Made by a program: the position numbers and the translations under genes. From a virus (Duplodnaviria; Heunggongvirae; Uroviricota; Caudoviricetes), in the IMG/VR virus record IMGVR_UViG_2029527006_000005: a stretch of DNA of 64,000 bases; one strand, given 5' to 3'. This document shows positions 2,745 to 59,792 of this stretch, in pieces. How positions within the stretch are numbered: the stretch's first letter is position 1; every line of letters starts with the position of its first letter. The notes beneath the pieces are model-generated. The model saw nothing but the letters and a program-made list of their open reading frames with translations, had not been told where the DNA came from and did no database searches.

Positions 2745-2785
2745 CGTATATTATATCACATAAACTTGATTTTGTCCCAAGTTTT
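2745..2785 (-). promoter_or_regulatory. conserved sigma70-like promoter (copy 1): CTTGGGACAAA-N-TGTGATATAAT on the minus strand
   Basis: plus strand reads attatatcaca(2750-2760)...tgtcccaag(2773-2781); extended -10 TGaTATAAT, -35-like GGGACA, 17-nt spacer. Confidence 0.6.
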
Positions 2786-2787
2786 TA

Positions 2788-3036
2788 TCATTTTCCGTTA
2801 AAAACATTTCTCGTTGCATTACGCTCGTCTTCAACATTGATAAGATTTTGAGACACCATACAGCCTTGAATATATCCAAGCCAACGGTGCTTCTTCGTTT
2901 CTGACATAGTATCAGATACCAATTCGTCAAGCATCCACGCTAGGTGGTGTCTCGATGTGGGATGGTCTGGATCATTTTCAGATTTAGTGTCCAGTACTTC
3001 TAAGTACCTTTGGCGTAGATCATCGTAGAAATTCAT
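2788..3036 (-). CDS. hypothetical protein (82 aa)
   Basis: ORF track. Confidence 0.45.
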   Translation of the reverse strand: MNFYDDLRQRYLEVLDTKSENDPDHPTSRHHLAWMLDELVSDTMSETKKHRWLGYIQGCMVSQNLINVEDERNATRNVFNGK

Positions 3037-3305
3037 TGATCGTATATTCCTGCGGTAAGTAGTAGATCGGCCATACCATGTGGACCCAACTTACGGTTGG
3101 AGTTGATCACAATAGTATAAGTGGGATCTTCATCGATGTTCTTCTGTACTGAAGTCCATGAACCAAATAGATGTTCATATCCGGGAACCATAATAGTACC
3201 TGCACCATAACCTTCACTTACTGCTTCAGCAACATCTTTCATTACGAGCGGCATAGGCACACCCGGTGGGGGTTGAATGCCAATTACAGTTAATAATGTG
3301 TTCAT
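3033..3305 (-). CDS. hypothetical protein (90 aa)
   Basis: ORF track; 4-nt overlap with the upstream gene. Confidence 0.5.
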   Translation of the reverse strand: MNTLLTVIGIQPPPGVPMPLVMKDVAEAVSEGYGAGTIMVPGYEHLFGSWTSVQKNIDEDPTYTIVINSNRKLGPHGMADLLLTAGIYDQ

Positions 3306-3319
3306 GATAACCTCATTTG

Positions 3320-3407
3320 TGGTGGGAGAGGCAAGGACTCGAACCTTGCATTGTCACTAGGACTAAGACACTGGAGATGCCTATGTATACCTTTCCATCA
3401 CTCTCCC
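3320..3407 (-). tRNA. tRNA, class II length (88 nt), isotype undetermined
   Basis: reverse complement has acceptor GGGAGAG/CTCTCCC, T-arm CAAGG-TTCGAGT-CCTTG and encoded CCA; anticodon arm could not be folded by eye. Confidence 0.5.
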
Positions 3408-3409
3408 GT

Positions 3410-3480
3410 TGGTGGACATGCTGGGAGTCCAACCCAGCCTCGGATTCGCCCTAACGGGAGAACCCAATCACGCAATCTGC
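3410..3480 (-). ncRNA. tRNA-like element or small stable RNA (non-canonical)
   Basis: T-arm-like CTGGG-TTGGACT-CCCAG followed by CATGTCCACCA, but no matching 5' acceptor strand; lies immediately after the preceding tRNA. Confidence 0.25.
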
Positions 3481-3481
3481 C

Positions 3482-3655
3482 CTAGTTTAAGAATGATAAT
3501 TCTTGACTGCATTCAACAAGTACAATCGAAATATCTTCAGGTTTAGTGAATTCTGCAAGTAATATTTCACGAGCATCAGTTGCTGTATGTGCCCGGACAA
3601 CCGTTAAGCCCGGAACAATACCTTCACCCTTTACACGAAAGATATAGTTAATCAT
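3482..3655 (-). CDS. hypothetical small protein (57 aa)
   Basis: ATG (3653-3655) overlaps the stop of the upstream gene (ATGA); MINYIFRVKGEGIVPG...; below the track cutoff. Confidence 0.3.
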   Translation of the reverse strand: MINYIFRVKGEGIVPGLTVVRAHTATDAREILLAEFTKPEDISIVLVECSQELSFLN

Positions 3656-3933
3656 AGTTTATTCATCGCTACAATTTCAATCTCGCAATAATCAGGCTTA
3701 TTCGATGAGTGACTGAATTCAGTACTCTGAATGTGCCGCTGTACATCATAGATAGAATCAAAACTACCATCATCCAACCATGCAATACATGATTCATTAA
3801 CAGTTTCAGTACTATACTTCCAGCCTAAACCACTACCATCAGGGACTTTATCATGAACCTTATAACTATAACGTATAAAATACTTACTCATCTTCCCATA
3901 CCTCTTCTGGAATGTGTGGCGGTTGATAACCAT
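3652..3933 (-). CDS. hypothetical protein (93 aa)
   Basis: ORF track. Confidence 0.5.
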   Translation of the reverse strand: MVINRHTFQKRYGKMSKYFIRYSYKVHDKVPDGSGLGWKYSTETVNESCIAWLDDGSFDSIYDVQRHIQSTEFSHSSNKPDYCEIEIVAMNKL

Positions 3934-4135
3934 TTAGTTCTTTAACTTCTTCTTCGAACCAAATAAAATTACCCTGTGAATCAGTACCGTAAAAACGTTT
4001 ATGAAGTTCATCGTACTTGTAACCTTTAGCACGTGCTTCATCATAAAACTGTTTCAAGTTCACGTATACTCCATAGACTTCAGTGCGTTCTGAATCAATG
4101 TAATCAGTTTCTTTCAAAATCACAACGACTTGCAT
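3884..4135 (-). CDS. hypothetical protein (83 aa or shorter)
   Basis: ORF track; its start overlaps the upstream gene so the true start may be internal. Confidence 0.4.
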   Translation of the reverse strand: MQVVVILKETDYIDSERTEVYGVYVNLKQFYDEARAKGYKYDELHKRFYGTDSQGNFIWFEEEVKELNGYQPPHIPEEVWEDE

Positions 4136-4551
4136 TAGTAACGCCTCCTGTCAACTGAAAACTTATTAATCTCTTCTTTAGCTAAACCTAAAAGAAGTTC
4201 AAGTTTATGTACTAACTCATATGGTAACACATTATCACTCATTGTGCTAGCTTGAAATCCATCTTCTTCAGAATGTGGTACGTAGTACTCAGAAGTACGG
4301 TTAAGATTTCTTAATAATTGTACCATCACCAATGGACTTAGGGGATTATTATTCTGTTGAAGTACTACCTCTTCTTCTTTAGTTGGCTCCAAATCAGGAA
4401 GAGATATAGTATTTGTAAGACGATCAAACGTAATACGCTGACTTGCACTCCTGATGAATAAACGGTGTGGTGCACCGCTTACGAAGCCGAAAGTGAAGTC
4501 TTCAGCAAACATCATATCATCAAATAACTTTCTGTACAACTCAATGTTCAC
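4135..4551 (-). CDS. hypothetical protein (138 aa)
   Basis: ORF track. Confidence 0.5.
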   Translation of the reverse strand: MNIELYRKLFDDMMFAEDFTFGFVSGAPHRLFIRSASQRITFDRLTNTISLPDLEPTKEEEVVLQQNNNPLSPLVMVQLLRNLNRTSEYYVPHSEEDGFQASTMSDNVLPYELVHKLELLLGLAKEEINKFSVDRRRY

Positions 4552-5041
4552 GATTCATCTCCGCAAAAAACATTTCACGTGCACGTTCTACTACATCAAT
4601 GTAGAACCCCAAGTCAGTACAGGAAAGCTGGAATCTTTCTTCCTCGGAATTATACGTGTATTCCGCATCACTGAACCAGAATCCATTATACTTCAATAAA
4701 ATCTGTGAGTCAACTGCATCATGCAATTCATCACGATAATATTCAGGTGGAACACCGTACTCACTAGTGTTGAAGTGAAACATCTGGTAGATGCTCAATT
4801 CTTTAAAATCCGGGAGATAATGGAAATGGTAATTTTCAGTGAATAGATGTACTTCATTTGAATTGGAACTATTACAGTACTCACTGAAGTACTGTTCAGT
4901 GTCAACAGTGTCACGATATCCGTCTTCACCATCGTCTACCCAAACAAAAAAAGATGGCTCATCTAAGAAACCATCTTCCAAATTGTCTAAATCTTTACTT
5001 AGGTGTTCAAACATACCTTTTTGTCTGATCAGTTCTTTCAT
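4541..5041 (-). CDS. member of the EEE-FFQ-ST small-protein family
   Basis: C-terminal SEEERFQLSCTDLGFY matches the motif shared by at least 14 other ORFs in the window. Confidence 0.55.
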   Translation of the reverse strand: MKELIRQKGMFEHLSKDLDNLEDGFLDEPSFFVWVDDGEDGYRDTVDTEQYFSEYCNSSNSNEVHLFTENYHFHYLPDFKELSIYQMFHFNTSEYGVPPEYYRDELHDAVDSQILLKYNGFWFSDAEYTYNSEEERFQLSCTDLGFYIDVVERAREMFFAEMNREH

Positions 5042-5044
5042 AGT

Positions 5045-5461
5045 TCAGTACCTCATATTAGATATATTAGTCCACACTTCATGAACTTCTGACCGTTCTG
5101 TGAGTTTTTGCATCTCATTATAAATTTCAATAATTATAGTGATTTCATCACGAGATATATAATTATTAAGTTCTTTTAAAATATCAAATGTAAACCCAAA
5201 TGGTAAATCTATTCTACGGGTTGAAGAATTACAAAGAGAAAGAACTATTTTAGTTCTTAGAAGAAATATAGTACTGTATTCTTCTTCTGTTCCATTATAT
5301 AACTTAAAACGCCATATTAAATTTCCATCATATGGACTCATTACATTACTGTACTCTACTAAATGTAGATTTTCATGTACAGTAAAATGCCAGTTATGTA
5401 AGTCTCTTAATGTTTCAGTACTCTTAATATGAAAATATAAATCTATTAAATCATTAATCAT
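5045..5461 (-). CDS. hypothetical protein (138 aa)
   Basis: ORF track. Confidence 0.5.
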   Translation of the reverse strand: MINDLIDLYFHIKSTETLRDLHNWHFTVHENLHLVEYSNVMSPYDGNLIWRFKLYNGTEEEYSTIFLLRTKIVLSLCNSSTRRIDLPFGFTFDILKELNNYISRDEITIIIEIYNEMQKLTERSEVHEVWTNISNMRY

Positions 5462-5689
5462 ATAGTACCTCTTTAATTAAAATAAATCACTCAAGGCATA
5501 GCCAGTCGTTCCCAATCTTTACCACATAACCCTTGCATTTATCTTTCAGGTAGCGACCCTGATACATCCACGATGTTATGAGATTCCCTTATATTATACT
5601 TCGAAATATAATATATTGATGAGTGATTTAAAATCGTGTGAACATCAACAGTAGATGGGACTGATGACCTCGGATGCCGAAGCAGTTGC

Positions 5690-5735
5690 CTGATGTTCGT
5701 GGTAGGAAGTCTTGGATTCGAACCAAGTAATCGAG
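5690..5735 (-). other. isolated tRNA-like T-arm plus CCA element inside a 470-nt non-coding stretch
   Basis: reverse complement CTTGG-TTCGAAT-CCAAG-ACTTCCT-A-CCA with no matching 5' acceptor strand nearby. Confidence 0.25.
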
Positions 5736-5943
5736 CGATCAACCTCAACCTAACCCCACGCATACTGTCTCCATTCCAAATCGCTTCTAGACGCTTTCTG
5801 GACTCTCTGAGAGTAATTGCCGGTTCAACCTATTGTAATGCTACTAACTCGGCTCCCCATTACCGTACTTGGACTTGACCTTATTACAGGTTGGTGTGTA
5901 TGCTTAACCGCTTATACACTAGCTTTTTGCTTTCACATTGTAG

Positions 5944-6015
5944 TACTCTATAACAGAATCGAACTGTTCTTTCTGGCGTGAAAGGACAACGTCCTAACCG
6001 ATAGACGAATAGAGT
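5944..6015 (-). ncRNA. tRNA-like element (perfect acceptor and T-arm, non-canonical D/anticodon region)
   Basis: acceptor ACTCTAT/ATAGAGT, T-arm AACAG-TTCGATT-CTGTT, internal hairpin CTTTC-ACGCCA-GAAAG with a 6-nt loop; no encoded CCA. Confidence 0.35.
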
Positions 6016-6017
6016 AG

Positions 6018-6094
6018 TGGTACGGCGTACTGGATTTTAACCAATAACACCCGGATTAAAAATCCGGTGCTCTAAACAATTGAGCTAACACCGC
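6018..6094 (-). tRNA. tRNA-Lys (anticodon UUU)
   Basis: reverse complement GCGGTGT-TAGCTCAATTGTTTAGAGCA-CCGGA-TTTTTAA-TCCGG...; acceptor pairs; encoded CCA. Confidence 0.75.
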
Positions 6095-6096
6095 AT

Positions 6097-6173
6097 TGGC
6101 AGTCCTGACGGGCTACGATCCCGCGACCTCTCGCGTGACAGGCGAGTATTGTGACCAACTCAACTACAGGACT
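6097..6173 (-). tRNA. tRNA-Asp (anticodon GUC)
   Basis: acceptor AGTCCTG/CAGGACT, anticodon stem CTCGC/GCGAG with loop CTGTCAC, T-arm CGCGGGATCGTAGCCCG, discriminator G plus CCA. Confidence 0.75.
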
Positions 6174-6189
6174 AAATTTATGAGGATTA

Positions 6190-6855
6190 TCAATCCTCAT
6201 CTTTTCTCAAACGATCATGTTCTTCTCTGTGACAATTTGCACATACTAAAACACATTTATCTAATTCCGGTTGCATCGTCTTAAATGAGCGTGTAGAACC
6301 AGTTTTGGATATTGAGAAATCTTTTTGCGTAGGATCTAAATGGTGAAATTCAAGGGCTGCTATGCATTTATCATAACCGCACATGGTGCATTTACCACCT
6401 TTATATTCTACTGCTTTCAATTTAAGTTGTCTGCGATGTTCGGTAATTTTCGCATTCTTACATGGCTTACATACGTATCTACCATTATTATATGGTGAGT
6501 ATTCACATTGGTGAATATCACAGAACTTACCTTTATTGCTGACAACTTTATATGAATTTTCTTTTCCAAGAGTAATAGATTCAGATGATGTTCTTATTTG
6601 AATTCCGTTACGCTTAAGTACTGAGAGTATTGTATTTCTCGCACAAGAAAATTGTTTTCTAATTTCATTGGCTGATTTCCCAGAATTATACAAATCAATG
6701 ATTTCTTGTTCTGGTAGTTTCTTCCTCAATGTCTCCGCACGTTTTCGTTTGGATTCATCTGAGTGTACTCTCGTTTTATTAAAATGAGATAATGAACAAC
6801 TTCTGTTACAAAACTCATCATTTGTGGTGTGTTTACCACAATGTTTACATTCCAT
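6190..6855 (-). CDS. HNH endonuclease with zinc-ribbon and HTH modules
   Basis: C-terminal EFHHLDP...CANCHREEH HNH motif and multiple CxxC pairs; central NSGKSANEIRKQF...RNGIQIR HTH-like segment; sits between tRNA genes. Confidence 0.7.
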   Translation of the reverse strand: MECKHCGKHTTNDEFCNRSCSLSHFNKTRVHSDESKRKRAETLRKKLPEQEIIDLYNSGKSANEIRKQFSCARNTILSVLKRNGIQIRTSSESITLGKENSYKVVSNKGKFCDIHQCEYSPYNNGRYVCKPCKNAKITEHRRQLKLKAVEYKGGKCTMCGYDKCIAALEFHHLDPTQKDFSISKTGSTRSFKTMQPELDKCVLVCANCHREEHDRLRKDED

Positions 6856-6921
6856 GTATTAACCTCTGACATAATAAATCTTTTCTTTATTTATGTCAAT
6901 GGATCATTTAAGGAATGTAAG

Positions 6922-7010
6922 TGGCGGTTCCTGCTGGATTCGAACCAGCGGTGGAGATTTCTCTCGACAGCTTAACAGGCTGGCATCATCGGCCTCTCGA
7001 TCAAAGAACC
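6922..7010 (-). tRNA. class II (long variable arm) tRNA, anticodon loop reads CTGTTAA (GUU?); possibly Tyr/Leu-derived
   Basis: acceptor GGTTCTT/AGGAACC, T-arm GCTGG-TTCGAAT-CCAGC, variable hairpin GAGA-GAAA-TCTC, encoded CCA; the anticodon assignment is uncertain. Confidence 0.55.
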
Positions 7011-7013
7011 TTG

Positions 7014-7094
7014 TGGTCGGTGTGAGAGGATTCGAACCTCTGAAAACCCCTCCGTCCCAAACGGAGTGCTCTGACCAGACTGAGCTACACACCG
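7014..7094 (-). tRNA. tRNA-Pro (anticodon UGG)
   Basis: acceptor CGGTGTG/CACACCG, anticodon stem CTCCG/CGGAG with loop TTTGGGA, T-arm AGAGG-TTCGAAT-CCTCT, CCA. Confidence 0.7.
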
Positions 7095-7222
7095 ATACTG
7101 AAATCCATTTTTGTTTTTTTATATCCGAAAAAAGTAATTGCTGTTGGATTTCGTTTTACTAGAATCTATTTTGTTTTCACCATTGAATTTTGAATTTAAT
7201 TGCTGTTAGATTCTAAATTACA

Positions 7223-7528
7223 TTATAGCTGAATATTTCCAACTTGTAAAGTCGTTTTCTTAGCTTCCGCTGGTACTGGCTCGTTTACTGGAACATCCTC
7301 TATATTGTTTGTTGTGGACTCTTCAGGGACTTCATCAAGAAGAGTACCGTTACGCATTTTGATTAGTACTTCAGGAATGATACCCTTCTGTACGTCATCA
7401 TACATTGAAACTACTGTTTCTATACAAGCACAAAGTTCACGTACTTTGTACTGATAACCTTGAGGAAGAGGTTTGACAACTTCAAGTACTTCCTCAAGTT
7501 TTTGTAATAATTCTTTATGTACTGACAT
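7223..7528 (-). CDS. hypothetical protein (about 101 aa)
   Basis: track ORF 7223..7615 trimmed to the ATG at 7526-7528, which follows AGAGGT. Confidence 0.45.
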   Translation of the reverse strand: MSVHKELLQKLEEVLEVVKPLPQGYQYKVRELCACIETVVSMYDDVQKGIIPEVLIKMRNGTLLDEVPEESTTNNIEDVPVNEPVPAEAKKTTLQVGNIQL

Positions 7529-7648
7529 AGTTACCTCTAAGGGGTAGTAATATACCTTTGGGTCTTTCGGGATTACTCGATTACGTCCGGTACTACAAAC
7601 CCTTATTCCCAACATAAAGGACGCCTATGAGCTTAACCAGTATATTAC

Positions 7649-7897
7649 TTATTCTTTAGCCAAACGAATCTCATTGCCAGTTTTGTAAGCAATAACTCCG
7701 TCACCTAGATCATTACGACCTTCGACTAGATTACTAGCATCTACTGTCTTGGTATGAACACCGTCAGCCATAGCTGCTACTGACATAATTGTTGATACAA
7801 GTTCTTCGATTTTAACTGCGTACTGTTCAGGTAGGTCTTGAGTTGCATCAATAATACCTTGTGCGTATGCTGCTAGTGTTTCTAAACGTTCGTTCAT
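7649..7897 (-). CDS. hypothetical protein (82 aa)
   Basis: ORF track. Confidence 0.5.
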   Translation of the reverse strand: MNERLETLAAYAQGIIDATQDLPEQYAVKIEELVSTIMSVAAMADGVHTKTVDASNLVEGRNDLGDGVIAYKTGNEIRLAKE

Positions 7898-7905
7898 ATA
7901 TAGCC

Positions 7906-7989
7906 TTTAATTAATGGTGTGGGATGATGGATTTGAACCACCGTACCAATCGGAGTGGATTTACAGTCCACCACATTTAACCGCTCTGC
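7906..7989 (-). tRNA. tRNA-Tyr (anticodon GUA)
   Basis: acceptor GTGGGAT/ATCCCAC, anticodon stem GTGGA/TCCAC with loop CTGTAAA, long variable arm, T-arm GGTGG-TTCAAAT-CCATC, CCA. Confidence 0.7.
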
Positions 7990-8007
7990 CAATCCCACAT
8001 TGTTATT

Positions 8008-8379: not shown

Positions 8380-8381
8380 AA

Positions 8382-9075: not shown

Positions 9076-9090
9076 TTATTATTCCAGATT

Positions 9091-9183
9091 TGGAGGTAGA
9101 TGTGAGATTTGAACTCACGAGCCGCTATTAACGGCTGCCAATTTTCAAGATTGGTGCAATAAGCCAGCCTCTGCCAATCTACC
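9091..9183 (-). tRNA. tRNA-Ser (anticodon UGA)
   Basis: acceptor GGTAGAT/ATCTACC, anticodon stem ACCAAT/ATTGG with loop CTTGAAA, long variable arm CAGCCGTTAATAGCGGCTCG, T-arm GTGAG-TTCAAAT-CTCAC, CCA. Confidence 0.75.
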
Positions 9184-10006
9184 TAGGTTTAGTCCAATAC
9201 CCTCGTGGGGGTTTTGATATATTATATTTTTTACAACGCTTTTCAATGGCTTTATCACTAACACCATACATCTTAGATAATGTTGATGCTGGATATTTCC
9301 ATATCATTTCTGAAAGTTCATCTTTTGAAATTTCAAATTTTTGTTGTGATTTTTTTGCACAAGTTTGAGAACAAAATTGTTGATCTCTGTGTTCGTGCAT
9401 ACGTTCAAATATAACACCACATGATTTACATGTCAAGCTGTGAATTTGAACTATTCTCTTTTCTTTGGGTGGTAATTTGGGTTTAACCAACTTACGTTCT
9501 TTCTTGACCGGAGTTATATTATTGTACAGTGATACAAAATTATCACCATATATACTTTTAACTTGGTCTAAAATTTCTATCATTTCGTATTTTGTCAGTA
9601 CTGTAATATATGGAAAATTATATTTTTTTATATAAGAAATTTCCGTTTCGTAACCTTTTATCTCAATTACGCTTTCATTATTAATGATGAAATCTGGAAT
9701 ATATTCATGTGACTCACCATCGATCGATGTATAAAACAATTTCTCTCGATCATATCGTTTCACTTCAATTTTATGATATTCACAATATAAAATATATGCA
9801 AGTTCCCATGAGCTATCACAAAAAATTCCTTTATACCACCCTTTCAAACCACGACCAGAACCTTTACGATAACCACCATGATTGGAAGACGATATATTTT
9901 TATTTGGATTTAATTTGCAAAATGCCTGGTGGGTTGCAATACCACGATCTTTAAATCCTTTATTACAATATTGACAATTTTTCATAAACATACCATTCGA
10001 ACTCAT
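9179..10006 (-). CDS. putative PD-(D/E)XK-type homing endonuclease with N-terminal zinc finger and C-terminal HTH
   Basis: CQYCNKGF...HQAFC; SSWELAYILYCEYHK...YIPDFII...VIEIKGY (D...ExK pattern); C-terminal ELSEMIWKYPASTLSKMYGVSDKAIEKRCKKYNISKPPRGYW is shared with the HNH gene at 25668..26186. Confidence 0.55.
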   Translation of the reverse strand: MSSNGMFMKNCQYCNKGFKDRGIATHQAFCKLNPNKNISSSNHGGYRKGSGRGLKGWYKGIFCDSSWELAYILYCEYHKIEVKRYDREKLFYTSIDGESHEYIPDFIINNESVIEIKGYETEISYIKKYNFPYITVLTKYEMIEILDQVKSIYGDNFVSLYNNITPVKKERKLVKPKLPPKEKRIVQIHSLTCKSCGVIFERMHEHRDQQFCSQTCAKKSQQKFEISKDELSEMIWKYPASTLSKMYGVSDKAIEKRCKKYNISKPPRGYWTKPR

Positions 10007-10224
10007 ATATGTTTATTTATCAAATCGTCTTGATTTTTAATTAAAAACTGGATTCATTTTGTTTGTACTATACAGGCCGCTACTGCTTATCTTTCACCTA
10101 TAAAGCCACCGTAATTTTCCGCACGTGTTCTGCGTTATATGCCCGAAGACATAACATACTTCATATAATTGTTTGAAGGTTTGCTGTATGAATCCGCTTG
10201 CTAGCGTTTTTTATCTTTCGATAA

Positions 10225-10262
10225 TTATATTATATCACTATTTTTCACTGTTTGTCCCAAGT
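10225..10262 (-). promoter_or_regulatory. conserved sigma70-like promoter (copy 2)
   Basis: attatatcac (10229-10238) ... tgtcccaag (10253-10261); 18-nt spacer. Confidence 0.55.
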
Positions 10263-10277: not shown

Positions 10278-10556
10278 TTAGTTATTTTCGGAATCTTTTA
10301 ATAGTTCCTGATAGTGTGCGTATTCTTCTTCGTTTAGTTCAATACCTTGAGCAATACATTGTTCATAGTACTGAATATCATTACCTGTGCTATGTAGCTC
10401 ACCTACATACACAGTACTGGAACGAATAGGAATGGCATATGTACCATCAATTGATTCTAGTACTGTGTTAAGATCCCCGATTGCCGCACCTGTTTCTGTG
10501 CACTGTTCGATAAAATTATCGAGGTCTTTGAAATTGTCTTCGTTTAAATATTCCAT
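10278..10556 (-). CDS. hypothetical acidic protein (92 aa)
   Basis: ORF between two promoter copies. Confidence 0.5.
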   Translation of the reverse strand: MEYLNEDNFKDLDNFIEQCTETGAAIGDLNTVLESIDGTYAIPIRSSTVYVGELHSTGNDIQYYEQCIAQGIELNEEEYAHYQELLKDSENN

Positions 10557-10581: not shown

Positions 10582-10618
10582 TATTATTATATCACAAAAT
10601 TATGCGTTTGTCCCAAGT
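10582..10618 (-). promoter_or_regulatory. conserved sigma70-like promoter (copy 3)
   Basis: attatatcaca (10586-10596) ... tgtcccaag (10609-10617); 17-nt spacer; overlaps the 3' end of the upstream gene. Confidence 0.6.
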
Positions 10619-11930: not shown

Positions 11931-12146
11931 TTACTTACGTTTGTTTTTGCGAGTTAGATCGTGTAGCTCGCTTTTGAGTTCATTCTTCCACTCTAGAAGA
12001 TGCACAAAAGTGATCTTCTTAACATCGGGACCAGAATGCTGATCAAGCATCGCTTCAACCTGAGAAAGTTGGAACTTGATGTAGTTCACAGTACGGTCTA
12101 GGTCAGAGATATCAGCTAGGCGGGTTTCGGTTTTAGTGTTAGACAT
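11931..12146 (-). CDS. hypothetical protein (71 aa)
   Basis: ORF track; downstream of promoter copy 4. Confidence 0.5.
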   Translation of the reverse strand: MSNTKTETRLADISDLDRTVNYIKFQLSQVEAMLDQHSGPDVKKITFVHLLEWKNELKSELHDLTRKNKRK

Positions 12147-12226: not shown

Positions 12227-12263
12227 ATTTATTATATCACATAATCAAGCGTTTGTCCCAAGA
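12227..12263 (-). promoter_or_regulatory. conserved sigma70-like promoter (copy 4)
   Basis: attatatcaca (12231-12241) ... tgtcccaag (12254-12262); 17-nt spacer. Confidence 0.6.
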
Positions 12264-12277: not shown

Positions 12278-12362
12278 TGGGAGCGAAGGAAGGAGTCGAA
12301 CCTTCACGGTAGCTTTCCGACCTCAGTTATGCACATGCCTTGTCTACTGAATCGCCTGAGAA
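12278..12362 (-). ncRNA. tRNA-like element (T-arm, acceptor-like 3' end and CCA; non-canonical body)
   Basis: reverse complement ...GAAGG-TTCGACT-CCTTC-CTTCGCT-C-CCA; a 5-bp stem CTCAG/CTGAG encloses 30 nt; no canonical cloverleaf found. Confidence 0.3.
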
Positions 12363-12374
12363 CAACGCTCATTA

Positions 12375-12404
12375 TTACTTAAAATCGGGGGTTTGTCAAC
12401 CCCC
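12375..12404 (-). terminator. rho-independent terminator
   Basis: hairpin GGGGGTT-TGTC-AACCCCC (12387-12404) followed on the minus strand by GATTTTAAG; just after the stop of 12414..12935. Confidence 0.5.
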
Positions 12405-20334: not shown

Positions 20335-20577
20335 TTACTCCTTAAATTCGCTAAGTGCAAGTGTTAATAGCTTTGCAAGTTTTTCAGCTTCTTCTAAGTC
20401 AAGAGTGAAGCCTAATCCTGCTGAATTAAGTTTGAGGTTAATGCGTTCCTCATACTGTGGGTACATTGTAGCACACATACCCTTCCTGTCAAGCACATCA
20501 TCTTCATGAGTGAGCTTTATTTTCACTAAAGTGAAGCGGTCTGTATCTGGACCGGATGCGGTACGTTCTATTTGCAT
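20335..20577 (-). CDS. hypothetical protein (80 aa)
   Basis: ORF track. Confidence 0.45.
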   Translation of the reverse strand: MQIERTASGPDTDRFTLVKIKLTHEDDVLDRKGMCATMYPQYEERINLKLNSAGLGFTLDLEEAEKLAKLLTLALSEFKE

Positions 20578-26200: not shown

Positions 26201-26282
26201 TGGTCCGGGCGGCAAGATTCGAACTCGCATACTCCAATTACTCGATTAACGACGGGTTAGAAGCCCGTTGAGATACGCCCGG
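26201..26282 (-). ncRNA. tRNA-like gene (aberrant; possibly Arg-UCU derived)
   Basis: acceptor CCGGGCG/CGCCCGG, T-arm GCGAG-TTCGAAT-CTTGC, CCA, hairpin ACGGG-CTTCTAA-CCCGT, but no recognisable D-arm; its 5' end coincides with the predicted TSS of promoter copy 5. Confidence 0.4.
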
Positions 26283-26286
26283 TTTA

Positions 26287-26323
26287 TTTTATTATATCAC
26301 ATTAACTGATTTTTGTCCCAAGA
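26287..26323 (-). promoter_or_regulatory. conserved sigma70-like promoter (copy 5)
   Basis: attatatcaca (26291-26301) ... tgtcccaag (26314-26322); 17-nt spacer. Confidence 0.6.
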
Positions 26324-32681: not shown

Positions 32682-32758
32682 TGGTGCTAACGGTAGGACT
32701 TGAACCCACAAAATGCCTCATTACAAGTGAGGTGCTGTACCAATTGAGCCACGTCAGC
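32682..32758 (-). tRNA. tRNA-Thr (anticodon UGU)
   Basis: acceptor GCTGACG/CGTTAGC, D-arm GCTCAATTGGTACAGC, anticodon stem CCTCA/TGAGG with loop CTTGTAA, T-arm GTGGG-TTCAAGT-CCTAC, CCA. Confidence 0.75.
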
Positions 32759-32810: not shown

Positions 32811-32847
32811 TTCTATTATATCACATTATCAGTGATTTGTCCCAAGT
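32811..32847 (-). promoter_or_regulatory. conserved sigma70-like promoter (copy 6)
   Basis: attatatcaca (32815-32825) ... tgtcccaag (32838-32846); 17-nt spacer. Confidence 0.6.
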
Positions 32848-35271: not shown

Positions 35272-35362
<91 letters not shown>

Positions 35363-35366: not shown

Positions 35367-35403
35367 TTATATTATATCACATTTTTCTTGCTTTGTCCCA
35401 ACT
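35367..35403 (-). promoter_or_regulatory. conserved sigma70-like promoter (copy 7)
   Basis: attatatcaca (35371-35381) ... tgtcccaac (35394-35402); 17-nt spacer. Confidence 0.6.
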
Positions 35404-38863: not shown

Positions 38864-39427
38864 TCTTACGATTGTCTAAGAATTTTCGATTCTCTTACTC
38901 ACTTCGTTCGTATCGTATCTCAATTCATTTTGTACTGTTAATACTGACGAGGTTTGTTGAGGCAATTTCATCCCCCACAGGGGGAATGAAGACAATAAAA
39001 AAGTACTAATTAAAGTACTGAATATTGTTCTGACGCTGGTGGCATCGGAATTTTCGAATCGTGAATTTCTCTGAATTTTAGACGTAACTATAGCGTACTA
39101 AAATTGGTCAAAGAACGAAAGCGGGTTGCTCTGTTTCTCTCTATCACGGTCATGTGCAACGGTCGTAGTCTTACTACACTCACACAAAGCCTATTCGAAC
39201 AAGCTCTGTGTGCAACGCCTAAGCGTTTCCCTTAGCATATTGGTGAGTGACCTCATATGTCTATCTTGGAGCCTTAACGTGCCTTACGTTGCTCTTTATA
39301 GTGCCACATTGCCGCGAACGGGTTTCATCTGCACTTCGCATGTGTGGTCATGCTCATCGTCCCTTTACGTTTTCAAGGGTTTCGGTTTAATACGTCTGCA
39401 TATAGCAGCCACAATTGTTACATCTAA
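38864..39427 (-). other. 560-nt untranslated leader, candidate structured ncRNA
   Basis: no minus-strand ORF between promoter copy 8 and the next gene; contains a perfect 10-bp hairpin TTCATCCCCC-ACA-GGGGGAATGAA (38967-38990). Confidence 0.35.
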
Positions 39428-39464
39428 ATTTATTATATCACATTATTCGCCATCTGTCCCAAGT
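39428..39464 (-). promoter_or_regulatory. conserved sigma70-like promoter (copy 8)
   Basis: attatatcaca (39432-39442) ... tgtcccaag (39455-39463); 17-nt spacer. Confidence 0.6.
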
Positions 39465-53808: not shown

Positions 53809-53819
53809 ATTATGTCTCC

Positions 53820-56201
53820 TTACTGTTTGCCAACTAATGGTATAATGAATTTGTCCTGCACATACAAGTCATAGTCTTGTGTGTGGAATGTAAATTCAAC
53901 ACCATGTACCTCGAATTCGGTATTTACTAAAGTACTATGCTCGTTAGTTTGAACTAGCTTAGTAAAGAATGATTCAGCTTGACCGGGATTGAAGTAAGCA
54001 ACTGGTAGGATTGGCATAAACTGTGGAGTTAAGCCATATTCTTCATATGGGTGATTCATAAAACGAGGAACTGTATCTGTCATTTCATCGGATAGACCGG
54101 GGATGGCAGGAACAACTAAACCGCGATTTCGAAAATCATCTGGATCAGTATAAAGGTTTGTCACATCTTCACCCACTTCTTTAAAAATGTTTTGGCGTAA
54201 ACCAAACACTTCTGAGAACATTTCATTGTCGGTCGCGGTATATGAATGTGGATTCATACTGACACTAACACGTGTTCCTGATGGATGCAACTCACGATAC
54301 AATAGATCATACACCACATTCCCAAGATTGTCAAGGGCTGATGTGATTTTATAATTACCCATTACTAGACTGAAAACACCATCCGGTACGGGAGCACCAT
54401 GTTCAGGGTCTATAATAACATTGGAGAGAATCTTTTTCAAGGGTTTTATTCCGGGGAACTGATAGTTCTGTGAAATGAAGTTCTCTTTCAATAGCATTCT
54501 AGGAAGCTGTTGAACACCATAACGATCATCACTTTCTCTGTAGTAAGTTTTATTCAAATAGAAGTTAGAGGTTGCAACACTAGCAAACCATGCACGTTCG
54601 AAATTCTTACTAGGTGCAATATGTGCAGTTTGATAGTTCTGTCCAAATCCACGAATTATAGTTATATTGAATCGTTTTGTAACAGTAGCACCACCTTTAT
54701 CATTGGCGATTACGTCAAACTCTAATTTAATATCATCATTTGCTGAAAAGTCTTGGCTTCTTGCATATGCAGTGCCAACCATATAACCATCAGCAGTTAA
54801 ATCCATATTGTACTTACGAATATCATCAGGAGATGATTCATAGTTAATCCGATAAGTTACTAATGTACCACTTGCTTTAATTTTAGGATATACAGTATGA
54901 CCAAAATACTCACCAACATGAATTCTACCTAAGTTTGCATCTGTTTCAAAATCAATACCACCGCCAGTACTGGCATTTATTAATGCACGGAACATTCTAG
55001 ATTTGTTTATAAGATTTGCACCTAGTGCTAAATCATATACACCTAAATCATTCCACATAGAAGGTTCAAAAATTGCATATTCATTACTATCAATGTATTC
55101 TGATTTTATCACATAAGGATAAACAATATTGTTTTTCAACTGATATAAGTGTCCGGGCTTTGCACCACCACGAATATAACTAATGTCATTAGGACACACC
55201 CACATTTGATATGCTTTGAACCGCTTCCCTACATAGAATGCATCTCTAGGTGAACTATAGAATGCAGTAATAGGAACAATCTTAACTTGGAAATAACCAT
55301 CAATTGGATCTGATTCGTATGTCATTGTTTGAAGAAGTTGACCGTTAGCATTAAAACGCATACCAGTACTTACTAAGTTACCCAAAGTATCCATTATGAC
55401 AATATCAGTTTCTTCAGTTATTGCAGTGGTTTTTGGAATTAAAATTGTACCGCTACCGGTAATATTATCAGTGGGTATTTGTCCTTTAGTAATACGTTCA
55501 ATTTGGTAACTAGGATAGAATACACGATCTGACCTGTCATCTGGGTATGTGAAATCTTTTGAGTCATCGTATTTTCGTACTTGACCAAAGGCATCAACAA
55601 ACAAACGACTGTCCGAACCAAAACCAACTGCACCAATTGTGTACTTTTCACCTCTAGCAATAATACTAGGCGTGACCCAAATTTCATTAGTATCGTTATA
55701 TACGATATCAACAGTAGAAGTAACAATATCTCCAGCAGCTTCTTGGTTGGAAATTTGACCGTCAGTGATTGTTACAACATCCATTGTGTTTAATGTAATA
55801 TGAACAGTTTCTGGCCCGTCCCAAACACCATCATCAATAGCTATTAATTTCATGTAATAAACATCTAGTACTGAATTATCATTTACTAGATTAAATTCTT
55901 TTTTGGTCATTTTTACTGTATGTTGACCGAACATAGTTTTAATACCAGTAGTTCCTTCGTGAATGTTCACTAAACTATTCTGATTTTCACCAACGTACAA
56001 TTCGAAATCACGTTCATCTAACGTTTCACCACTTCCAGTGAAAGTGTACGTTAGTTCTAAATGCTGATCGTCACCCAACTTGTATTGGAGGTTAGTACTA
56101 TCATCATTTTTTCTTAATTGAATGCGAACAAATAAGTGTCCACCTTCTGCGATCACTGTTGCGTCAGCTTTCAAGTCCCAACGTGGCTGGAAATTTGCCA
56201 T
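53820..56201 (-). CDS. large hypothetical protein (793 aa), candidate late/virion protein
   Basis: long ORF with beta-rich composition; T4-type late promoter TATAAATA about 30 nt upstream. Confidence 0.6.
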   Translation of the reverse strand: MANFQPRWDLKADATVIAEGGHLFVRIQLRKNDDSTNLQYKLGDDQHLELTYTFTGSGETLDERDFELYVGENQNSLVNIHEGTTGIKTMFGQHTVKMTKKEFNLVNDNSVLDVYYMKLIAIDDGVWDGPETVHITLNTMDVVTITDGQISNQEAAGDIVTSTVDIVYNDTNEIWVTPSIIARGEKYTIGAVGFGSDSRLFVDAFGQVRKYDDSKDFTYPDDRSDRVFYPSYQIERITKGQIPTDNITGSGTILIPKTTAITEETDIVIMDTLGNLVSTGMRFNANGQLLQTMTYESDPIDGYFQVKIVPITAFYSSPRDAFYVGKRFKAYQMWVCPNDISYIRGGAKPGHLYQLKNNIVYPYVIKSEYIDSNEYAIFEPSMWNDLGVYDLALGANLINKSRMFRALINASTGGGIDFETDANLGRIHVGEYFGHTVYPKIKASGTLVTYRINYESSPDDIRKYNMDLTADGYMVGTAYARSQDFSANDDIKLEFDVIANDKGGATVTKRFNITIIRGFGQNYQTAHIAPSKNFERAWFASVATSNFYLNKTYYRESDDRYGVQQLPRMLLKENFISQNYQFPGIKPLKKILSNVIIDPEHGAPVPDGVFSLVMGNYKITSALDNLGNVVYDLLYRELHPSGTRVSVSMNPHSYTATDNEMFSEVFGLRQNIFKEVGEDVTNLYTDPDDFRNRGLVVPAIPGLSDEMTDTVPRFMNHPYEEYGLTPQFMPILPVAYFNPGQAESFFTKLVQTNEHSTLVNTEFEVHGVEFTFHTQDYDLYVQDKFIIPLVGKQ

Positions 56202-56230
56202 ATTTAATTCTCCAAATATTTAAAAGCTAC

Positions 56231-56268
56231 CGTATTTATAACAATAAAGGATGCACGAGGCATCCTTT
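56231..56268 (-). terminator. putative terminator hairpin after the topo gene
   Basis: AAAGGATGC-ACGAG-GCATCCTTT (9-bp stem); weak U-tract. Confidence 0.35.
56233..56240 (-). promoter_or_regulatory. T4-type late promoter core TATAAATA
   Basis: plus strand tatttata; about 30 nt upstream of the ATG of the 793-aa gene. Confidence 0.35.
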
Positions 56269-56275
56269 AATATAC

Positions 56276-57697
56276 TTAGTCTTTTTCTGCTTTTGGTGTG
56301 CAGTCCATCTTACGTAGTTTCTTGAGTTCATCAGCATAAATGGTCCAGATCTCTTCTGGATTATCTAGAATGTCCTGATACTTATTCATTAAGTCTAGAG
56401 CTTCTTGAATCTCTTCTAGTGTCTTATTGTAGTTCTCTTGTGTCCAACGATAAGAAGCATAGTTCACGATGTTTTGGATATTATCATCGGTAGCTTGAAT
56501 ATCATCATTGAGTACTGTAACAAAATCAACTAGCTCTTGACGGTTTTGGAAGTCTTTAATCTTCGTTACCATCTCATTCTCAAAACACTTAGCTACTAGT
56601 GCTTTATAACGTACTTCTGCTTCTGCTTTAGCCAATAGATGCTCATAACGTTTCACGTAATATTTGAAACGGAAATGAACAAAGTCATGGATTAAGTCAG
56701 AAGTGTTATTGTAGACTTTTACACGACCGTTCTCACCGAGTACTACAAGTGATTGGGTCAATTTACTACTCAAACCAAAGTACTTGATTACATCACTTTC
56801 TACCCATTTAGCACTTGTGCCACGTGGTAGTTTGATAGTAATATCAATCGTATCAGTACTGTCATTGTCGTAGTCACGGATTTCACCGCTGTCCTGCATA
56901 GCAATTAGTTTCTCAATAAAAGAATCAATCTTCACACGAGGTGGTAGACCTAGAATCTTAACTGAACTTGCATCAATTACTTCTGCACGACCATAGAATT
57001 CATATTTGTTTTCATCGATTTCACCAACAATATCACTAGCACCAAGTGACACACAATAAGGAGTCATTTTCTGTAGTGGCTTTTTGTTAATTACGCGTAA
57101 GCAGTTGTCGATAATATCTTCGATGCGATAAGGTAGAATCAAACTCTTATAACCTACAGACATACTATCATTACCAAATAGTGATAATGGGATAATAGGT
57201 AGGAAGTGAGTTGGTTCCATTGTTGTACCATCATAGTTTTCTTGCATTGGTACAATGTCCATATCTTGTAGTACTAACGCTTCTGTTACTGCGGTACGTT
57301 TAACGTAAGTATAACGAGCACTAGCTGGAGTACTGTTAACCTGTGTACCGAAACCACCACGTTTACCGATGAGTGGATAGTTGTTAGCTACTGGACTTGC
57401 AAGGTTCTGTAGTGTTCCTGAAGCGGAAGTGTCACCGTGAAGGTAGATACCATCACTAATCATACGTCCTGCTGCGGATACAGTTTTAATCTCACCTGAG
57501 ATTTTACTTAGCGTGAAGATAGCCTTACGCTGTGAGCTTTTCAATCCATCAATACCGGGGATTGCACGGTCGAGAGTACTGACAGAATATTCCAATGATG
57601 ATTGGTTGATATATTCAGAACTCACGTATTTTAGTAGTGTTAGCGTTGCGTTTTCAATAGCATTACTTGCAGCCGCTTTTTTAGTTGATTTAGCCAT
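56276..57697 (-). CDS. gp52: DNA topoisomerase II medium subunit (T4 gp52-like, GyrA-like)
   Basis: TopoIIA breakage-reunion region with active-site Tyr context; 473 aa. Confidence 0.85.
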   Translation of the reverse strand: MAKSTKKAAASNAIENATLTLLKYVSSEYINQSSLEYSVSTLDRAIPGIDGLKSSQRKAIFTLSKISGEIKTVSAAGRMISDGIYLHGDTSASGTLQNLASPVANNYPLIGKRGGFGTQVNSTPASARYTYVKRTAVTEALVLQDMDIVPMQENYDGTTMEPTHFLPIIPLSLFGNDSMSVGYKSLILPYRIEDIIDNCLRVINKKPLQKMTPYCVSLGASDIVGEIDENKYEFYGRAEVIDASSVKILGLPPRVKIDSFIEKLIAMQDSGEIRDYDNDSTDTIDITIKLPRGTSAKWVESDVIKYFGLSSKLTQSLVVLGENGRVKVYNNTSDLIHDFVHFRFKYYVKRYEHLLAKAEAEVRYKALVAKCFENEMVTKIKDFQNRQELVDFVTVLNDDIQATDDNIQNIVNYASYRWTQENYNKTLEEIQEALDLMNKYQDILDNPEEIWTIYADELKKLRKMDCTPKAEKD

Positions 57698-57749
57698 TCC
57701 TTTGCCTCTTTGTTATTTCGGGGTACTTCCTGTACCCCTTCTTTAGTAC

Positions 57750-59723
57750 TTAGTCTTTCATCCATTCTTTACGGTCATCAGCACGTTCTTTGTTGAAGAT
57801 TAGGTCAAGGGTTGGACCCAAGTTACCATCATCAACAATAGCTACTGCTACGCCGTTAGTTAGTGCATCACGGAAGTTACTCTTCTCTAGAGTACCCAAT
57901 CCTTTAGCACGAGTTGCTTTCCAACCTTTCCATTCTTCTGGGTTATATTCTTCTACGTTGTGACCGTAGTAATAACGACTTTCTTTTCCTTTCTCCAAAA
58001 TAATAAAAGGAGTTTTGAAAATATACACGAATGGGTTTTCGGCATCTTCGAACAATTCAGGCCAGAACTTATATAGGAAGTTCACGACTAGTGCACCGAT
58101 GTTTTTACCATCCTCATCTTCGTCAGCACAGATATATAGTTTACCGTAGTTTAATTCATCACGGATTGCTTTCTGTCCGGGGATCAAGTTGATACTAGCC
58201 ATAATGTCTTTTAGGGCATCACTATCCATTAAGTCTTTGGTCTTTTCAGTACCGTTGACGTTCTTGATCTTACCACGAAGTGGGAGTATACCATGTTTCT
58301 TAGAATCACGTGCTGCTGACATGTTACTTACCGCTGAATCACCTTCTGCAATTAGAAGAATACATTCAGTACGGTTAGAACCAGTTGCATCAAGTAACTT
58401 AGCTACTTTAGCTTTTAGAAGTTTCTTAGCTAGACGACGATCTTCATCTGCGTCCTTCTTATTAGTACGTGCAGCAGTACGCTCAAAGATTTCTTCAACC
58501 CAATCTTTGTTTTTCTTCACTAGTTCATCAAAGAACTCAGGAGTCATAGCTTTTTTAACTGGAGCAATAACGTTCTCATTAGTTAGCTTAGATTTAATCT
58601 GTGAGTTGAACGATGGTGCGTTCATAGTAGTCACGTTATAAATCATTAGACCTTCTTCAATGTCTCCACGGTTAGGAGTCATTTTGCGTTTCTTAGCTTC
58701 TTTTTCAAGTGCAGTACTAACGCCTAGGGCAAAGAACTTTTTAAATGTTTCAAGGTGAGTACCGCCATCAAACGCAGGAGCGTTGTTAACAATACCTTGC
58801 ATGTGGAAGTTGGTATTCATATCTTTTACTGCGTTTGGCACAATATAGAAAGTACTGTCAAATCCAATGCTATCATCTTTAACATTTAGGTTCATCATTT
58901 TGTTTGCACCAAAAAGAGTTTTCTCTGGTGTCGCCTTAGTAGCAATCTTCTTGCCATTAAGGATAATCTTGTACGCTGGATTAGCAGAAGCAATCTCTTT
59001 CAAGATACTGTAAACTAAATCCATTGGGAGGTTGCGATTCTTGAACACTTCTGGACTTAGCGTGAAGCTAATTGATGTACCAGTTTTATCCGCTTGAACT
59101 TTGCGAATTGTAGGTTCTTGAATATCTAGTTCAGGGAACATAATAGTACCTTCCTTGAACTTTTGGTTGAACTTATAAATTCCATCATAGCCATCATTAG
59201 ATGCTTGGGTCTTATAAGGACGACCGTTGCGGTGAATCTCTAGCTCTGCTTTCGAACTCACACACATTGTAATGGAACCACCTAGACCGTTCTGACCGAT
59301 TGTACCTTCACGTTTTGAATCGTCAAAGTTACGACCAGTTTTGGTTTCAGTTAGTACCATAGTACACAAATGTACATCGAACTCTGGTACGTAATCAATT
59401 GGAATACCACGACCGTTATCACTTATTACAAATGATAAATCGTCTTCGTTGTAATCAATTTTTAGTACAGGATCTTTTGTACCTGCTTTTTTAAACTCAT
59501 CAAGAGAGTTATCAATGATCTCACGGAACGCTGTTATTAGTGCTGGAACCCATTCTAGGTTCACAACGTTATAACCGTCTTCTTTGAAAAGTACCACTTG
59601 GTGTTCATGAACAGAACGTGAACCTAAGTACATTTCAGTACGAATGCGAGCATGTTGATAGTCGTTTAGTCGCTGAACGTCATGTTCAGAAAGCACGGAT
59701 GAGGATTTCTTTTCTTTTGCCAT
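57750..59723 (-). CDS. gp39: DNA topoisomerase II large subunit (T4 gp39 fused with gp60-like region; GyrB-like ATPase)
   Basis: GHKL ATPase motifs (EIIDNSLDE, DNGRGIP, GLGGS), Toprim region; 657 aa implies a 39+60 fusion as in many T4 relatives. Confidence 0.85.
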   Translation of the reverse strand: MAKEKKSSSVLSEHDVQRLNDYQHARIRTEMYLGSRSVHEHQVVLFKEDGYNVVNLEWVPALITAFREIIDNSLDEFKKAGTKDPVLKIDYNEDDLSFVISDNGRGIPIDYVPEFDVHLCTMVLTETKTGRNFDDSKREGTIGQNGLGGSITMCVSSKAELEIHRNGRPYKTQASNDGYDGIYKFNQKFKEGTIMFPELDIQEPTIRKVQADKTGTSISFTLSPEVFKNRNLPMDLVYSILKEIASANPAYKIILNGKKIATKATPEKTLFGANKMMNLNVKDDSIGFDSTFYIVPNAVKDMNTNFHMQGIVNNAPAFDGGTHLETFKKFFALGVSTALEKEAKKRKMTPNRGDIEEGLMIYNVTTMNAPSFNSQIKSKLTNENVIAPVKKAMTPEFFDELVKKNKDWVEEIFERTAARTNKKDADEDRRLAKKLLKAKVAKLLDATGSNRTECILLIAEGDSAVSNMSAARDSKKHGILPLRGKIKNVNGTEKTKDLMDSDALKDIMASINLIPGQKAIRDELNYGKLYICADEDEDGKNIGALVVNFLYKFWPELFEDAENPFVYIFKTPFIILEKGKESRYYYGHNVEEYNPEEWKGWKATRAKGLGTLEKSNFRDALTNGVAVAIVDDGNLGPTLDLIFNKERADDRKEWMKD

Positions 59724-59755
59724 TATTTGCTGTCCTTGTCTCTTTGTCTCTTAGC

Positions 59756-59792
59756 CAATATTATATCACATTTTTGCTTCTTTGTCTCAAAA
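59756..59792 (-). promoter_or_regulatory. conserved sigma70-like promoter (copy 9, -35 variant TTGAGACA)
   Basis: attatatcaca (59760-59770) ... tgtctcaa (59783-59790); 17-nt spacer; 30 nt upstream of the gp39 start. Confidence 0.55.

Follow-up and report, generated by a model that had tools for sequence, protein, structure and literature searches.

Jumbo phages related to RaK2 (RaK2-like phages, with genomes of 345-380 kb) are being isolated for therapy, and their program of gene expression has been approached by sequence prediction. In Pectobacterium phage CBB, three classes of promoter were predicted using MEME (Buttimer et al. 2017, PMC5259590). Class (i) comprises RpoD-like promoters that have an UP-like element and cluster in a region of small open reading frames (ORFs). 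Class (ii), called Promoter 1, was described as "divergent RpoD-like" and has the consensus TGAAACG-N12-t(A/G)TGnTATAAT; its members lie before DNA-synthesis genes and before a gene for a gp55-like sigma factor, and a counterpart was noted in Cronobacter phage GAP32 (Abbasifar et al. 2014; PMC5259590). Class (iii) consists of T4-like late ATAAATA motifs (PMC5259590). Elsewhere, coliphage phiEco32 and Salmonella phage 7-11 each use a sigma factor of their own with the host core polymerase at phage-specific promoters, for which the consensus is tAATGTAtA (phiEco32 gp36) or GTAAtg-N16-aCTA (7-11 gp47) (PMC8948821). Here we analyze a set of promoters, which we name class B, in a 64,000-nucleotide (nt) stretch of DNA from a Caudoviricetes virus, IMG/VR record IMGVR_UViG_2029527006_000005. 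We refer to this whole stretch as the window. A first-pass annotation of the window had described nine near-identical copies of a promoter on its minus strand, and had proposed that they form a distinct class of early promoters.

The window has a G+C content of 37%, 11-12 tRNA genes, and almost all of its genes on the minus strand. Its nucleotide sequence is ~80% identical to Salmonella phages 7t3, Munch, SE_PL and PHA46 and to Klebsiella phage fENko-Kae01 (fENko below), and its more distant relatives are phages 121Q/PBECO4, CBB and GAP32 and Serratia phage BF. By these matches, the window is from a RaK2-like jumbo myovirus. A Pfam search of ten of its larger proteins found nothing informative.

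A discrete class of extended -10 promoters

The minus strand of the window contains nine copies of the sequence aaaa-cTTGGGACAAA-N10-TGTGATATAAT-a. The 11-mer TGTGATATAAT has eight exact matches in the window, all of them on the minus strand and at the positions first annotated. A search for the composite motif TTGGGACAAA-N10-TGTGATATAAT, allowing up to 2 mismatches, also gives 8 matches (6 exact, and 2 with one mismatch), compared to 0.00 matches per shuffle in 100 dinucleotide shuffles of the window. The ninth site, copy 2 (10229-10261), has the variant AGTG and one additional spacer base. Exact matching and the shuffle controls therefore bear out the existence of nine near-identical minus-strand copies, and the distance of 17 nt from GGGACA to TATAAT (18 nt in copy 2) that was originally reported is also correct. 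The gap of 13 nt that was reported between the two halves is a miscount: the true gap from cTTGGGACAAA is 9 nt to aTGTGATATAAT, or 10 nt to TGTGATATAAT, and a literal pattern with a gap of 12-15 nt matched nothing. When we scanned the window with a weight matrix trained on sites from fENko only, the eight copies with fixed spacing scored 38.8-50.3 bits, and neither the rest of the window nor 20 shuffles yielded any site above the reporting threshold of 8 bits. Since there are no intermediate scores, class B is a discrete class and not the top of a continuum.

We aligned 37 sites pooled from the window and fENko, and obtained the consensus aaaa(t/a)cTTGGGACAAA-n5-aataa-TGTGATATAATA. The -10 hexamer TATAAT is invariant both in the window (9/9 copies) and in the alignment (37/37 sites), in a scan that imposed TA.AAT. 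Upstream of the hexamer, G-16, T-15 and G-14 are each present in 37/37 sites and T-17 in 36/37 (window copy 2 has A at -17); only the G at -14 was imposed in this part of the motif. TRTGn is the known motif of extended -10 promoters, also called the -16 region, and such promoters can do without a -35 element. The invariant TGTG, which had been put forward as evidence for an additional protein contact, therefore needs no new contact, because TGTGnTATAAT is the extended -10 motif. A canonical -35 is absent: the hexamer at 17 nt is GGGACA, which matches TTGACA at 4/6 positions and has G in place of both leading T's in every copy, and the alternative hexamer TTGGGA would fall at 19 nt from the -10. 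The upstream half of the motif, which we call the box, is TTGGGACAAA at -37 to -28, preceded by an A-tract at -43 to -39. The information content of the alignment is ~0 outside -43 to -6, and therefore a longer dispersed repeat, which had been named beforehand as a finding that would refute the promoters, is excluded: the copies cease to resemble one another beyond the limits of the bipartite motif, and between its halves the spacer is free to vary. All nine copies are intergenic, co-oriented with the minus-strand genes and just upstream of a gene or an RNA gene, as the first-pass annotation had stated.

All nine window copies (9/9) have positional orthologs in fENko, and those within the region that we compared also have them in 7t3. 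Over the nine window-fENko pairs, sequence identity is 97.8% in the box and 99% in the extended -10, as against 72.5% in the spacer and 64-65% in the 40-nt flanks. We read this pattern as purifying selection on both halves of the motif and not on the spacer. The suspicion that the upstream box is conserved more than sigma70 requires is thus borne out, and the box is under selection. Because of the anatomy of the sites, this selection, and the genomic distribution described below, we consider it well supported that this RaK2-like jumbo phage has a second, discrete class of promoters, to which the nine copies belong. Where their transcripts start, when they are expressed and which protein reads the box are matters that we infer from sequence.

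Two other identities of the motif were considered and rejected. A CRP site, with TGTGA as its half-site, would have a partner, and there is no conserved TCACA at -6 to -2 or elsewhere. A motif of a host regulon was rejected since a search of 185,579 bacterial and archaeal genomes gave no exact match to the composite motif.

The box differs among clades of RaK2-like phages

The exact motif is also present in three metagenomic phages from IMG/VR, which are 76-82% identical to the window. Across clades the tRTGnTATAAT half is unchanged while the box differs. In 121Q, class B has (c/t)G(G/A)GACAAA and a spacing one base shorter, and 121Q/PBECO4 share the form tGrGACAAA; the other box variants are TGAGACA in PBECO4 and A4, TGGAACA in BF, TGAAACA in XaC1, and TGAAACG in CBB. 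The consensus for the whole family is TGrrAC(a)-N~11-tRTGnTATAAT, with clade-specific boxes, and the window's box TGGGACA fits the TGrrAC pattern of CBB, BF, XaC1, 121Q, PBECO4 and A4. The class is also recognizable by the genes it precedes. The promoter of a large structured RNA (see below) is class B in the window, fENko, CBB, BF, PBECO4, A4, XaC1 and EJP2, and the topoisomerase II promoter is class B in the window, 7t3, fENko and 121Q. The latter promoter has a G-to-A variant of the box, TTGAGACAAA, that is kept at the orthologous site in 7t3, fENko and 121Q.

Class B and CBB Promoter 1 share the t(A/G)TGnTATAAT half and an upstream box ~17 nt away from it. Both occur before DNA-synthesis genes, the gp55-like sigma gene and the orthologous large RNA, and both coexist with a canonical TTGACA class that bears an UP-like A-tract in the small-ORF region, the two sets being predictions alike. 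Judged by motif and context, class B is orthologous to the class predicted for CBB and GAP32 under the name "divergent RpoD-like promoters", and its box is a new variant. There are also differences. The CBB box is TGAAACG where the window has (T)TGGGACAAA, and the TGrrAC register is 1 nt off relative to TATAAT. The window consensus is much more rigid than that of CBB Promoter 1, and among the targets of the window class are tRNAs and non-coding RNAs, a kind of target not mentioned in the CBB paper; nor does that paper assign Promoter 1 to a phage sigma. The papers on RaK2 and fENko contain no promoter analysis, and in the literature we did not find the TTGGGACAAA variant published; searches for the strings TGTGATATAAT and TTGGGACAAA gave unrelated papers only.

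Class B is absent from the class A-rich terminal repeats of fENko

Promoters of the ordinary sigma70 type, which we call class A, were defined as TTGACA-N16-18-TATAAT with at least 11/12 positions matching. The window has 22 such sites on its minus strand, 8 of which match at 12/12, and 1 on its plus strand. Ordinary sigma70-type promoters and class B therefore coexist in the window, and the proposal that the nine copies form a distinct promoter class holds.

We surveyed both classes genome-wide in the complete 360-kb genome of fENko, whose ends were defined by PhageTerm. It contains 33 class B sites, on the plus strand only and spread from 36 to 301 kb. Class B is completely missing from the 19.7-kb direct terminal repeats, which have ~29 class A sites apiece, and from a block of small ORFs at 301-340 kb; these regions have canonical TTGACA/TATAAT promoters only. 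Both contrasts are significant: 29 class A and 0 class B sites in the terminal repeat compared to 74 and 33 elsewhere (Fisher p = 1.4e-4), and 5 class A and 13 class B sites in the replication block at 175-246 kb compared to 43 and 0 at 301-360 kb (Fisher p = 1.3e-9).

The genes preceded by class B sites in fENko include those for DNA polymerase, a gp45-like clamp, primase/helicase, RecA/UvsY and several nucleases, as well as nrdAB, nrdD, DHFR, topoisomerase II, a ClpA-like ATPase, tRNAs and non-coding RNAs. Class B also precedes ENKO_273, the second gene annotated as a sigma factor in this genome. No Pfam sigma domain is found in ENKO_273, which we take to be a gp55-like late sigma on the basis of its annotation in the record, its location amid structural genes, and the analogy to CBB_244. 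The gene for the RpoD-like sigma, ENKO_467, has a class A promoter ~40 nt upstream of it. Because class B is absent from the terminal repeats and the small-ORF block, is found preferentially in front of replication genes and also before the late sigma gene, and because the RpoD-like sigma gene is itself behind a class A promoter, we conclude that class B is probably a middle or delayed class and that the label "early" given to it in the first-pass annotation is probably wrong. The motif is a clean genome-wide marker of one regulatory class, and its 33 sites in this complete relative flag genes that would be switched together.

Examples of class A sites on the minus strand of the window are at 12399, 13697, 15852, 21058, 23391, 43643, 44320, 46482, 47709 and 48216. 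In many of them the -35 lies within a G+C hairpin that has a T-run behind it (gggggTTGACAaaccccc and agggaTTGACAgggtaacgccaatccct are examples), and thus the terminator of one unit would overlap the promoter of the next. Many class A sites in the fENko terminal repeat have an additional aaaaGTAC just upstream. A hybrid promoter at 20492 (minus strand), conserved at fENko 277448, has TTGACA, a 16-nt spacing and TGTGC-TACAAT, and so combines a class A -35 with a class B-type extended -10.

Candidate reader of the upstream box

Because the box varies among phages that infect the same bacterial host order, and is absent from the 185,579 cellular genomes, the simplest explanation is that its reader is encoded by the phage. 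For the box, this agrees with the contact by a phage factor that had been suggested. All the RaK2-like relatives that we searched encode a sigma70-family protein. Its closest solved relatives are primary sigmas, and Pfam detects regions 2 and 3; in the 121Q homolog the C-terminal domain matches Sigma70_r4, split by an insertion. We compared three of these proteins, from fENko, CBB and 121Q. Each has an acidic N-terminus of ~75 amino acids (aa) and an insertion inside the helix-turn-helix of region 4. The fENko and 121Q phages have both a GrGACAAA box and the residues SR...HR in the putative recognition helix, whereas CBB has a TGAAACG box and SK...SR, even though, overall, the nearer relative of the fENko sigma is that of CBB (46%, compared to 37% for 121Q). 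This covariation between helix and box over three proteins is suggestive. The possibility that the RpoD-like sigma is carried in the virion was rejected, as the sigma found by mass spectrometry of fENko virions is ENKO_273 and not ENKO_467.

There are parallels in other phages and in bacteria. The T4 middle promoters resemble class B in having a host-type -10, often with the extended TGn, and a phage-specific box near -30 in place of a -35; they also serve replication and nucleotide-metabolism genes and tRNAs, and come after a strong early sigma70 class. The T4 MotA box, (a/t)(a/t)(a/t)TGCTTtA centered at -30, is unrelated to the class B box TTGGGACAAA, and RaK2-like phages have an RpoD-like sigma whereas T4 has none. 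Among bacterial promoters, TGTGnTATAAT is exactly the motif of extended -10 promoters such as those of the E. coli galP1 type and many Bacillus sigmaA promoters, but unlike class B these have no conserved GGGACAAA box. With phiEco32 gp36, 7-11 gp47 and SPO1 gp28, the proposal made here for class B shares a sigma70-family phage sigma that sends the host core to a rigid consensus and a sigma gene that lies behind a host-type promoter. In those phages the consensus does not look like a host promoter, whereas the -10 of class B is a perfect host -10, and their sigmas are not close relatives of the RaK2-like sigma; dependence on the phage sigma is proven in those systems, and for class B we infer it.

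The explanation that we favor, with moderate confidence, is that class B is a middle class read by the host core polymerase carrying the phage RpoD-like sigma. The tRTGnTATAAT half, as a consensus extended -10, would let bacterial RNA polymerase open the DNA with little help from a -35, and TTGGGACAAA at -37 to -28 (TGrrAC in its family form) would stand in for the host TTGACA, being read by region 4 of the phage sigma on the host core. In such a program, host sigma70 would first fire class A in the terminal repeats, in the small-ORF blocks and at the phage sigma gene. The phage sigma would then fire class B, and with it the genes for replication, recombination and nucleotide metabolism, the tRNAs, the structured RNAs and the gp55-like sigma gene, and finally the gp55-like sigma would fire T4-type late promoters. 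Assigning three promoter classes to three sigmas (host sigma70, RpoD-like and gp55-like) is the most economical mapping. Only tentatively do we go further, to propose that the TGrrAC box is the -35 of the RaK2-like RpoD-like sigma in a three-sigma cascade, with a regulon that includes near-leaderless tRNAs and a new family of structured RNAs. The class B box is in any case a concrete target sequence on which the phage sigma can be tested.

Several points weigh against reading by the phage sigma. We did not find its gene in the window, so that its presence in the window's phage is deduced from the relatives. Pfam finds no region 4 in the fENko or CBB sigma, and the covariation with the box comes from three proteins. 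In a comparison with a sigma70 guide sequence, the W433/W434 dyad used in melting is replaced by TA, TT or SS in the phage sigmas; the residues that read the extended -10 are changed, with Y (fENko) or H at H455 and V at E458; and the 121Q sigma lacks Q437. These changes fit awkwardly with recognition by the phage sigma, because TGTGATATAAT is the strongest feature of the promoter. Host sigma70 should in any case be able to use a perfect TGnTATAAT, and class B could then fire from the start of infection.

This last point leads to the explanation that the host sigma70 holoenzyme acts alone. The class B sites would then be extended -10 promoters of great strength that fire within the first minutes, in line with the label "early" of the first-pass annotation, and their box would be only a sub-optimal -35 (GGGACA, 4/6) with flanking bases that tune its strength or touch region 4 or the C-terminal domain of the alpha subunit. 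The perfect -10, the invariant TGn and the A-tract at -43 to -39 are all as expected for such promoters, which need no -35; the pair H455/E458 that reads TG is present in host sigma70 and not in the phage sigma; and the one hybrid site at 20492 (TTGACA + TGTGC + TACAAT), conserved in fENko, joins features of the two classes. We nevertheless think this explanation unlikely, as it leaves four observations without an explanation: ten upstream bases are 98% conserved next to a spacer that drifts, the two T's most important to sigma70 are G in every copy, the box differs from one phage clade to another although their hosts are all of one bacterial order, and class B is excluded from terminal repeats that hold ~29 canonical promoters.

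A phage activator, or a sigma-appropriation pair similar to MotA/AsiA, might instead bind the TGrrAC box near -32 while host sigma70 reads the extended -10, leaving the phage RpoD-like sigma to serve another set of promoters. The box is where the T4 MotA box sits, at about -30, extended -10 promoters resist inhibition of region 4 by AsiA-type proteins, the class B gene set matches the T4 middle genes, and the odd residues in regions 2.4 and 3.0 of the phage sigma would fit a different -10. In tblastn searches of the fENko genome and the window, however, we found no homolog of MotA or AsiA (the best E-value was 0.14), though remote homologs could escape such a search; the box does not look like a MotA box; and neither our analysis nor that of CBB found a further class that the RpoD-like sigma could serve, there being three classes for three sigmas. 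We regard this arrangement as unlikely too, and slightly more so than the action of sigma70 alone. That the copies are not promoters at all, but a dispersed repeat used in recombination, packaging or replication or by a mobile element, is very improbable. They are near-identical, and several are beside tRNAs, an HNH endonuclease insertion or paralogous RNAs, but the sharp edges of the bipartite motif, its free spacer, the co-orientation of every copy with a gene or RNA gene directly downstream, and the retention of their positions across genomes that are 20% diverged all contradict it.

Genes and RNAs downstream of the nine sites

The nine sites, all on the minus strand, precede four protein genes (small ORFs after copies 1, 3 and 4, and topoisomerase II after copy 9), three tRNAs (copies 5, 6 and 7) and two non-coding RNAs (copies 2 and 8). 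Copy 1 (2750-2781, cTTGGGACAAA-N10-TGTGATATAAT; predicted start site, or +1, placed here and below 7 nt past the -10, ~2743; ortholog at fENko 290166) is upstream of a 71-aa ORF at 2514-2729, which has the ribosome-binding site AGAGGAAAG and matches phrog_29979. Copy 3 (10586-10617; predicted +1 ~10579; ortholog at fENko 286243) would drive a 92-aa ORF at 10278-10556. The target of copy 4 (12231-12262; predicted +1 ~12224; ortholog at fENko 284585) is a second 71-aa ORF, at 11931-12146, with a leader of 78 nt and a match to phrog_15704. Copy 9 (59760-59791, with box TTGAGACAAA; predicted +1 ~59753) lies directly after a terminator-like hairpin, and is followed by the gene for the topoisomerase II large subunit at 57750-59723.

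The three sites that precede tRNAs are copies 5, 6 and 7. Copy 5 (26291-26322; predicted +1 ~26284; ortholog at fENko 277221) comes straight after a terminator-like hairpin, GCCGCAATGCGGCATTTTT, and is followed by a tRNA-like gene at 26204-26282. Copy 7 (35371-35402; predicted +1 ~35364) is followed by a tRNA-Ser gene at 35272-35362, and its orthologs in fENko and 7t3 have an identical junction between the -10 and the tRNA. In both cases the predicted +1 is only 2 nt upstream of the mature 5' end of the tRNA (the -10 of copy 5 ends at 26291 and the tRNA starts at 26282; the -10 of copy 7 ends at 35371 and the tRNA starts at 35362), and because of this the two tRNAs would be transcribed with almost no leader. 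The observation that the start sites of these two copies land on tRNA 5' ends was therefore essentially right, with a tRNA at copy 5 that is weakly supported: it has an Rfam match of 35.1 bits, and ARAGORN does not call it. Copy 6 (32815-32846; predicted +1 ~32808; orthologs in fENko and 7t3) precedes a tRNA-Thr gene at 32682-32758 with a leader of ~50 nt.

The tRNA-like gene at 26204-26282 (minus strand) is 94-95% identical to genes annotated as "tRNA-OTHER" in Klebsiella phages of ~110 kb, which suggests exchange of tRNA genes between unrelated phages. Another element, at 12281-12370 (minus strand) between the class A promoter at 12399 and copy 4, resembles a degenerate tRNA. Its acceptor and T-arm are present (GGTTCGACTCC ... 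CGCTCCCA), its anticodon arm carries an insertion of 18 nt, and its score with the Rfam tRNA-Sec model is only 20 bits.

Structured non-coding RNAs

Copy 8 (39432-39463, with box TTGGGACAGA; predicted +1 ~39425; orthologs in fENko and 7t3) would drive a structured non-coding RNA of ~480 nt at 38945-39425 (minus strand), in which no minus-strand ORF exceeds 39 aa. It belongs to a multi-copy family of RNAs, 420-560 nt long, with homologs at 191 places in 62 records of RaK2-like jumbo phages, with hosts from Escherichia to Xanthomonas and 2-4 copies per genome among the matches listed. The fENko genome has four paralogs (at 264.7, 312.0, 181.0 and 39.0 kb), each directly downstream of a class B promoter, and in CBB, BF, PBECO4, A4, XaC1 and EJP2 the orthologous RNA follows the clade's own form of class B.

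From ten sequences of this family, RNAalifold predicts 73 base pairs, 34 of which have compensatory double changes, with 95.6% of cells paired. Shuffling the alignment columns gives 18.3 +/- 2.2 compensatory pairs (0/500 shuffles reach the observed 34), and sliding the partners gives 5-9 compensatory pairs with 39-47% pairing. The RNA has no match in Rfam 15, at E <= 10 for the window copy and E <= 5 for six homologs. A likeness to RNase P RNA, a hammerhead core or group I R/S elements, which we considered, is unsupported: the partner of the GAUGA segment is the 3' end, and the "GAA" that follows the hairpin varies. Several "hypothetical proteins" of deposited relatives overlap RNAs of this kind, and those annotated over them (ENKO_477, ENKO_278 and 7t3_0550/0551) are probably miscalls. 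The tRNAs made almost without a 5' leader and this large structured RNA family without an Rfam match are both worth study in their own right.

Copy 2 (10229-10261; predicted +1 ~10222) differs from the other copies in the window by its AGTG variant and longer spacer; its ortholog at fENko 286602 has the canonical TGTG and normal spacing. It is followed by a conserved non-coding RNA of ~180 nt, then by an insertion encoding an HNH endonuclease, and then by a tRNA-Ser gene. The ~180-nt transcript, at 10040-10222 (minus strand), contains no ORF, has no Rfam match, and is 83% identical to fENko 286631-286812. Its 5' GGAUUCAU can pair with its 3' AUGAAUCC, and it has a UUCG hairpin with compensatory changes between the window (UGUC-UUCG-GGCA) and fENko (UACC-UUCG-GGUA). 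The insertion, of ~860 bp at 9186-10043 between the ~180-nt RNA and the tRNA-Ser gene, is not in fENko. The ORF at 9179-10006 (minus strand) codes for a 275-aa HNH endonuclease-like protein (phrog_15471, E = 1e-16), which is probably a homing endonuclease.

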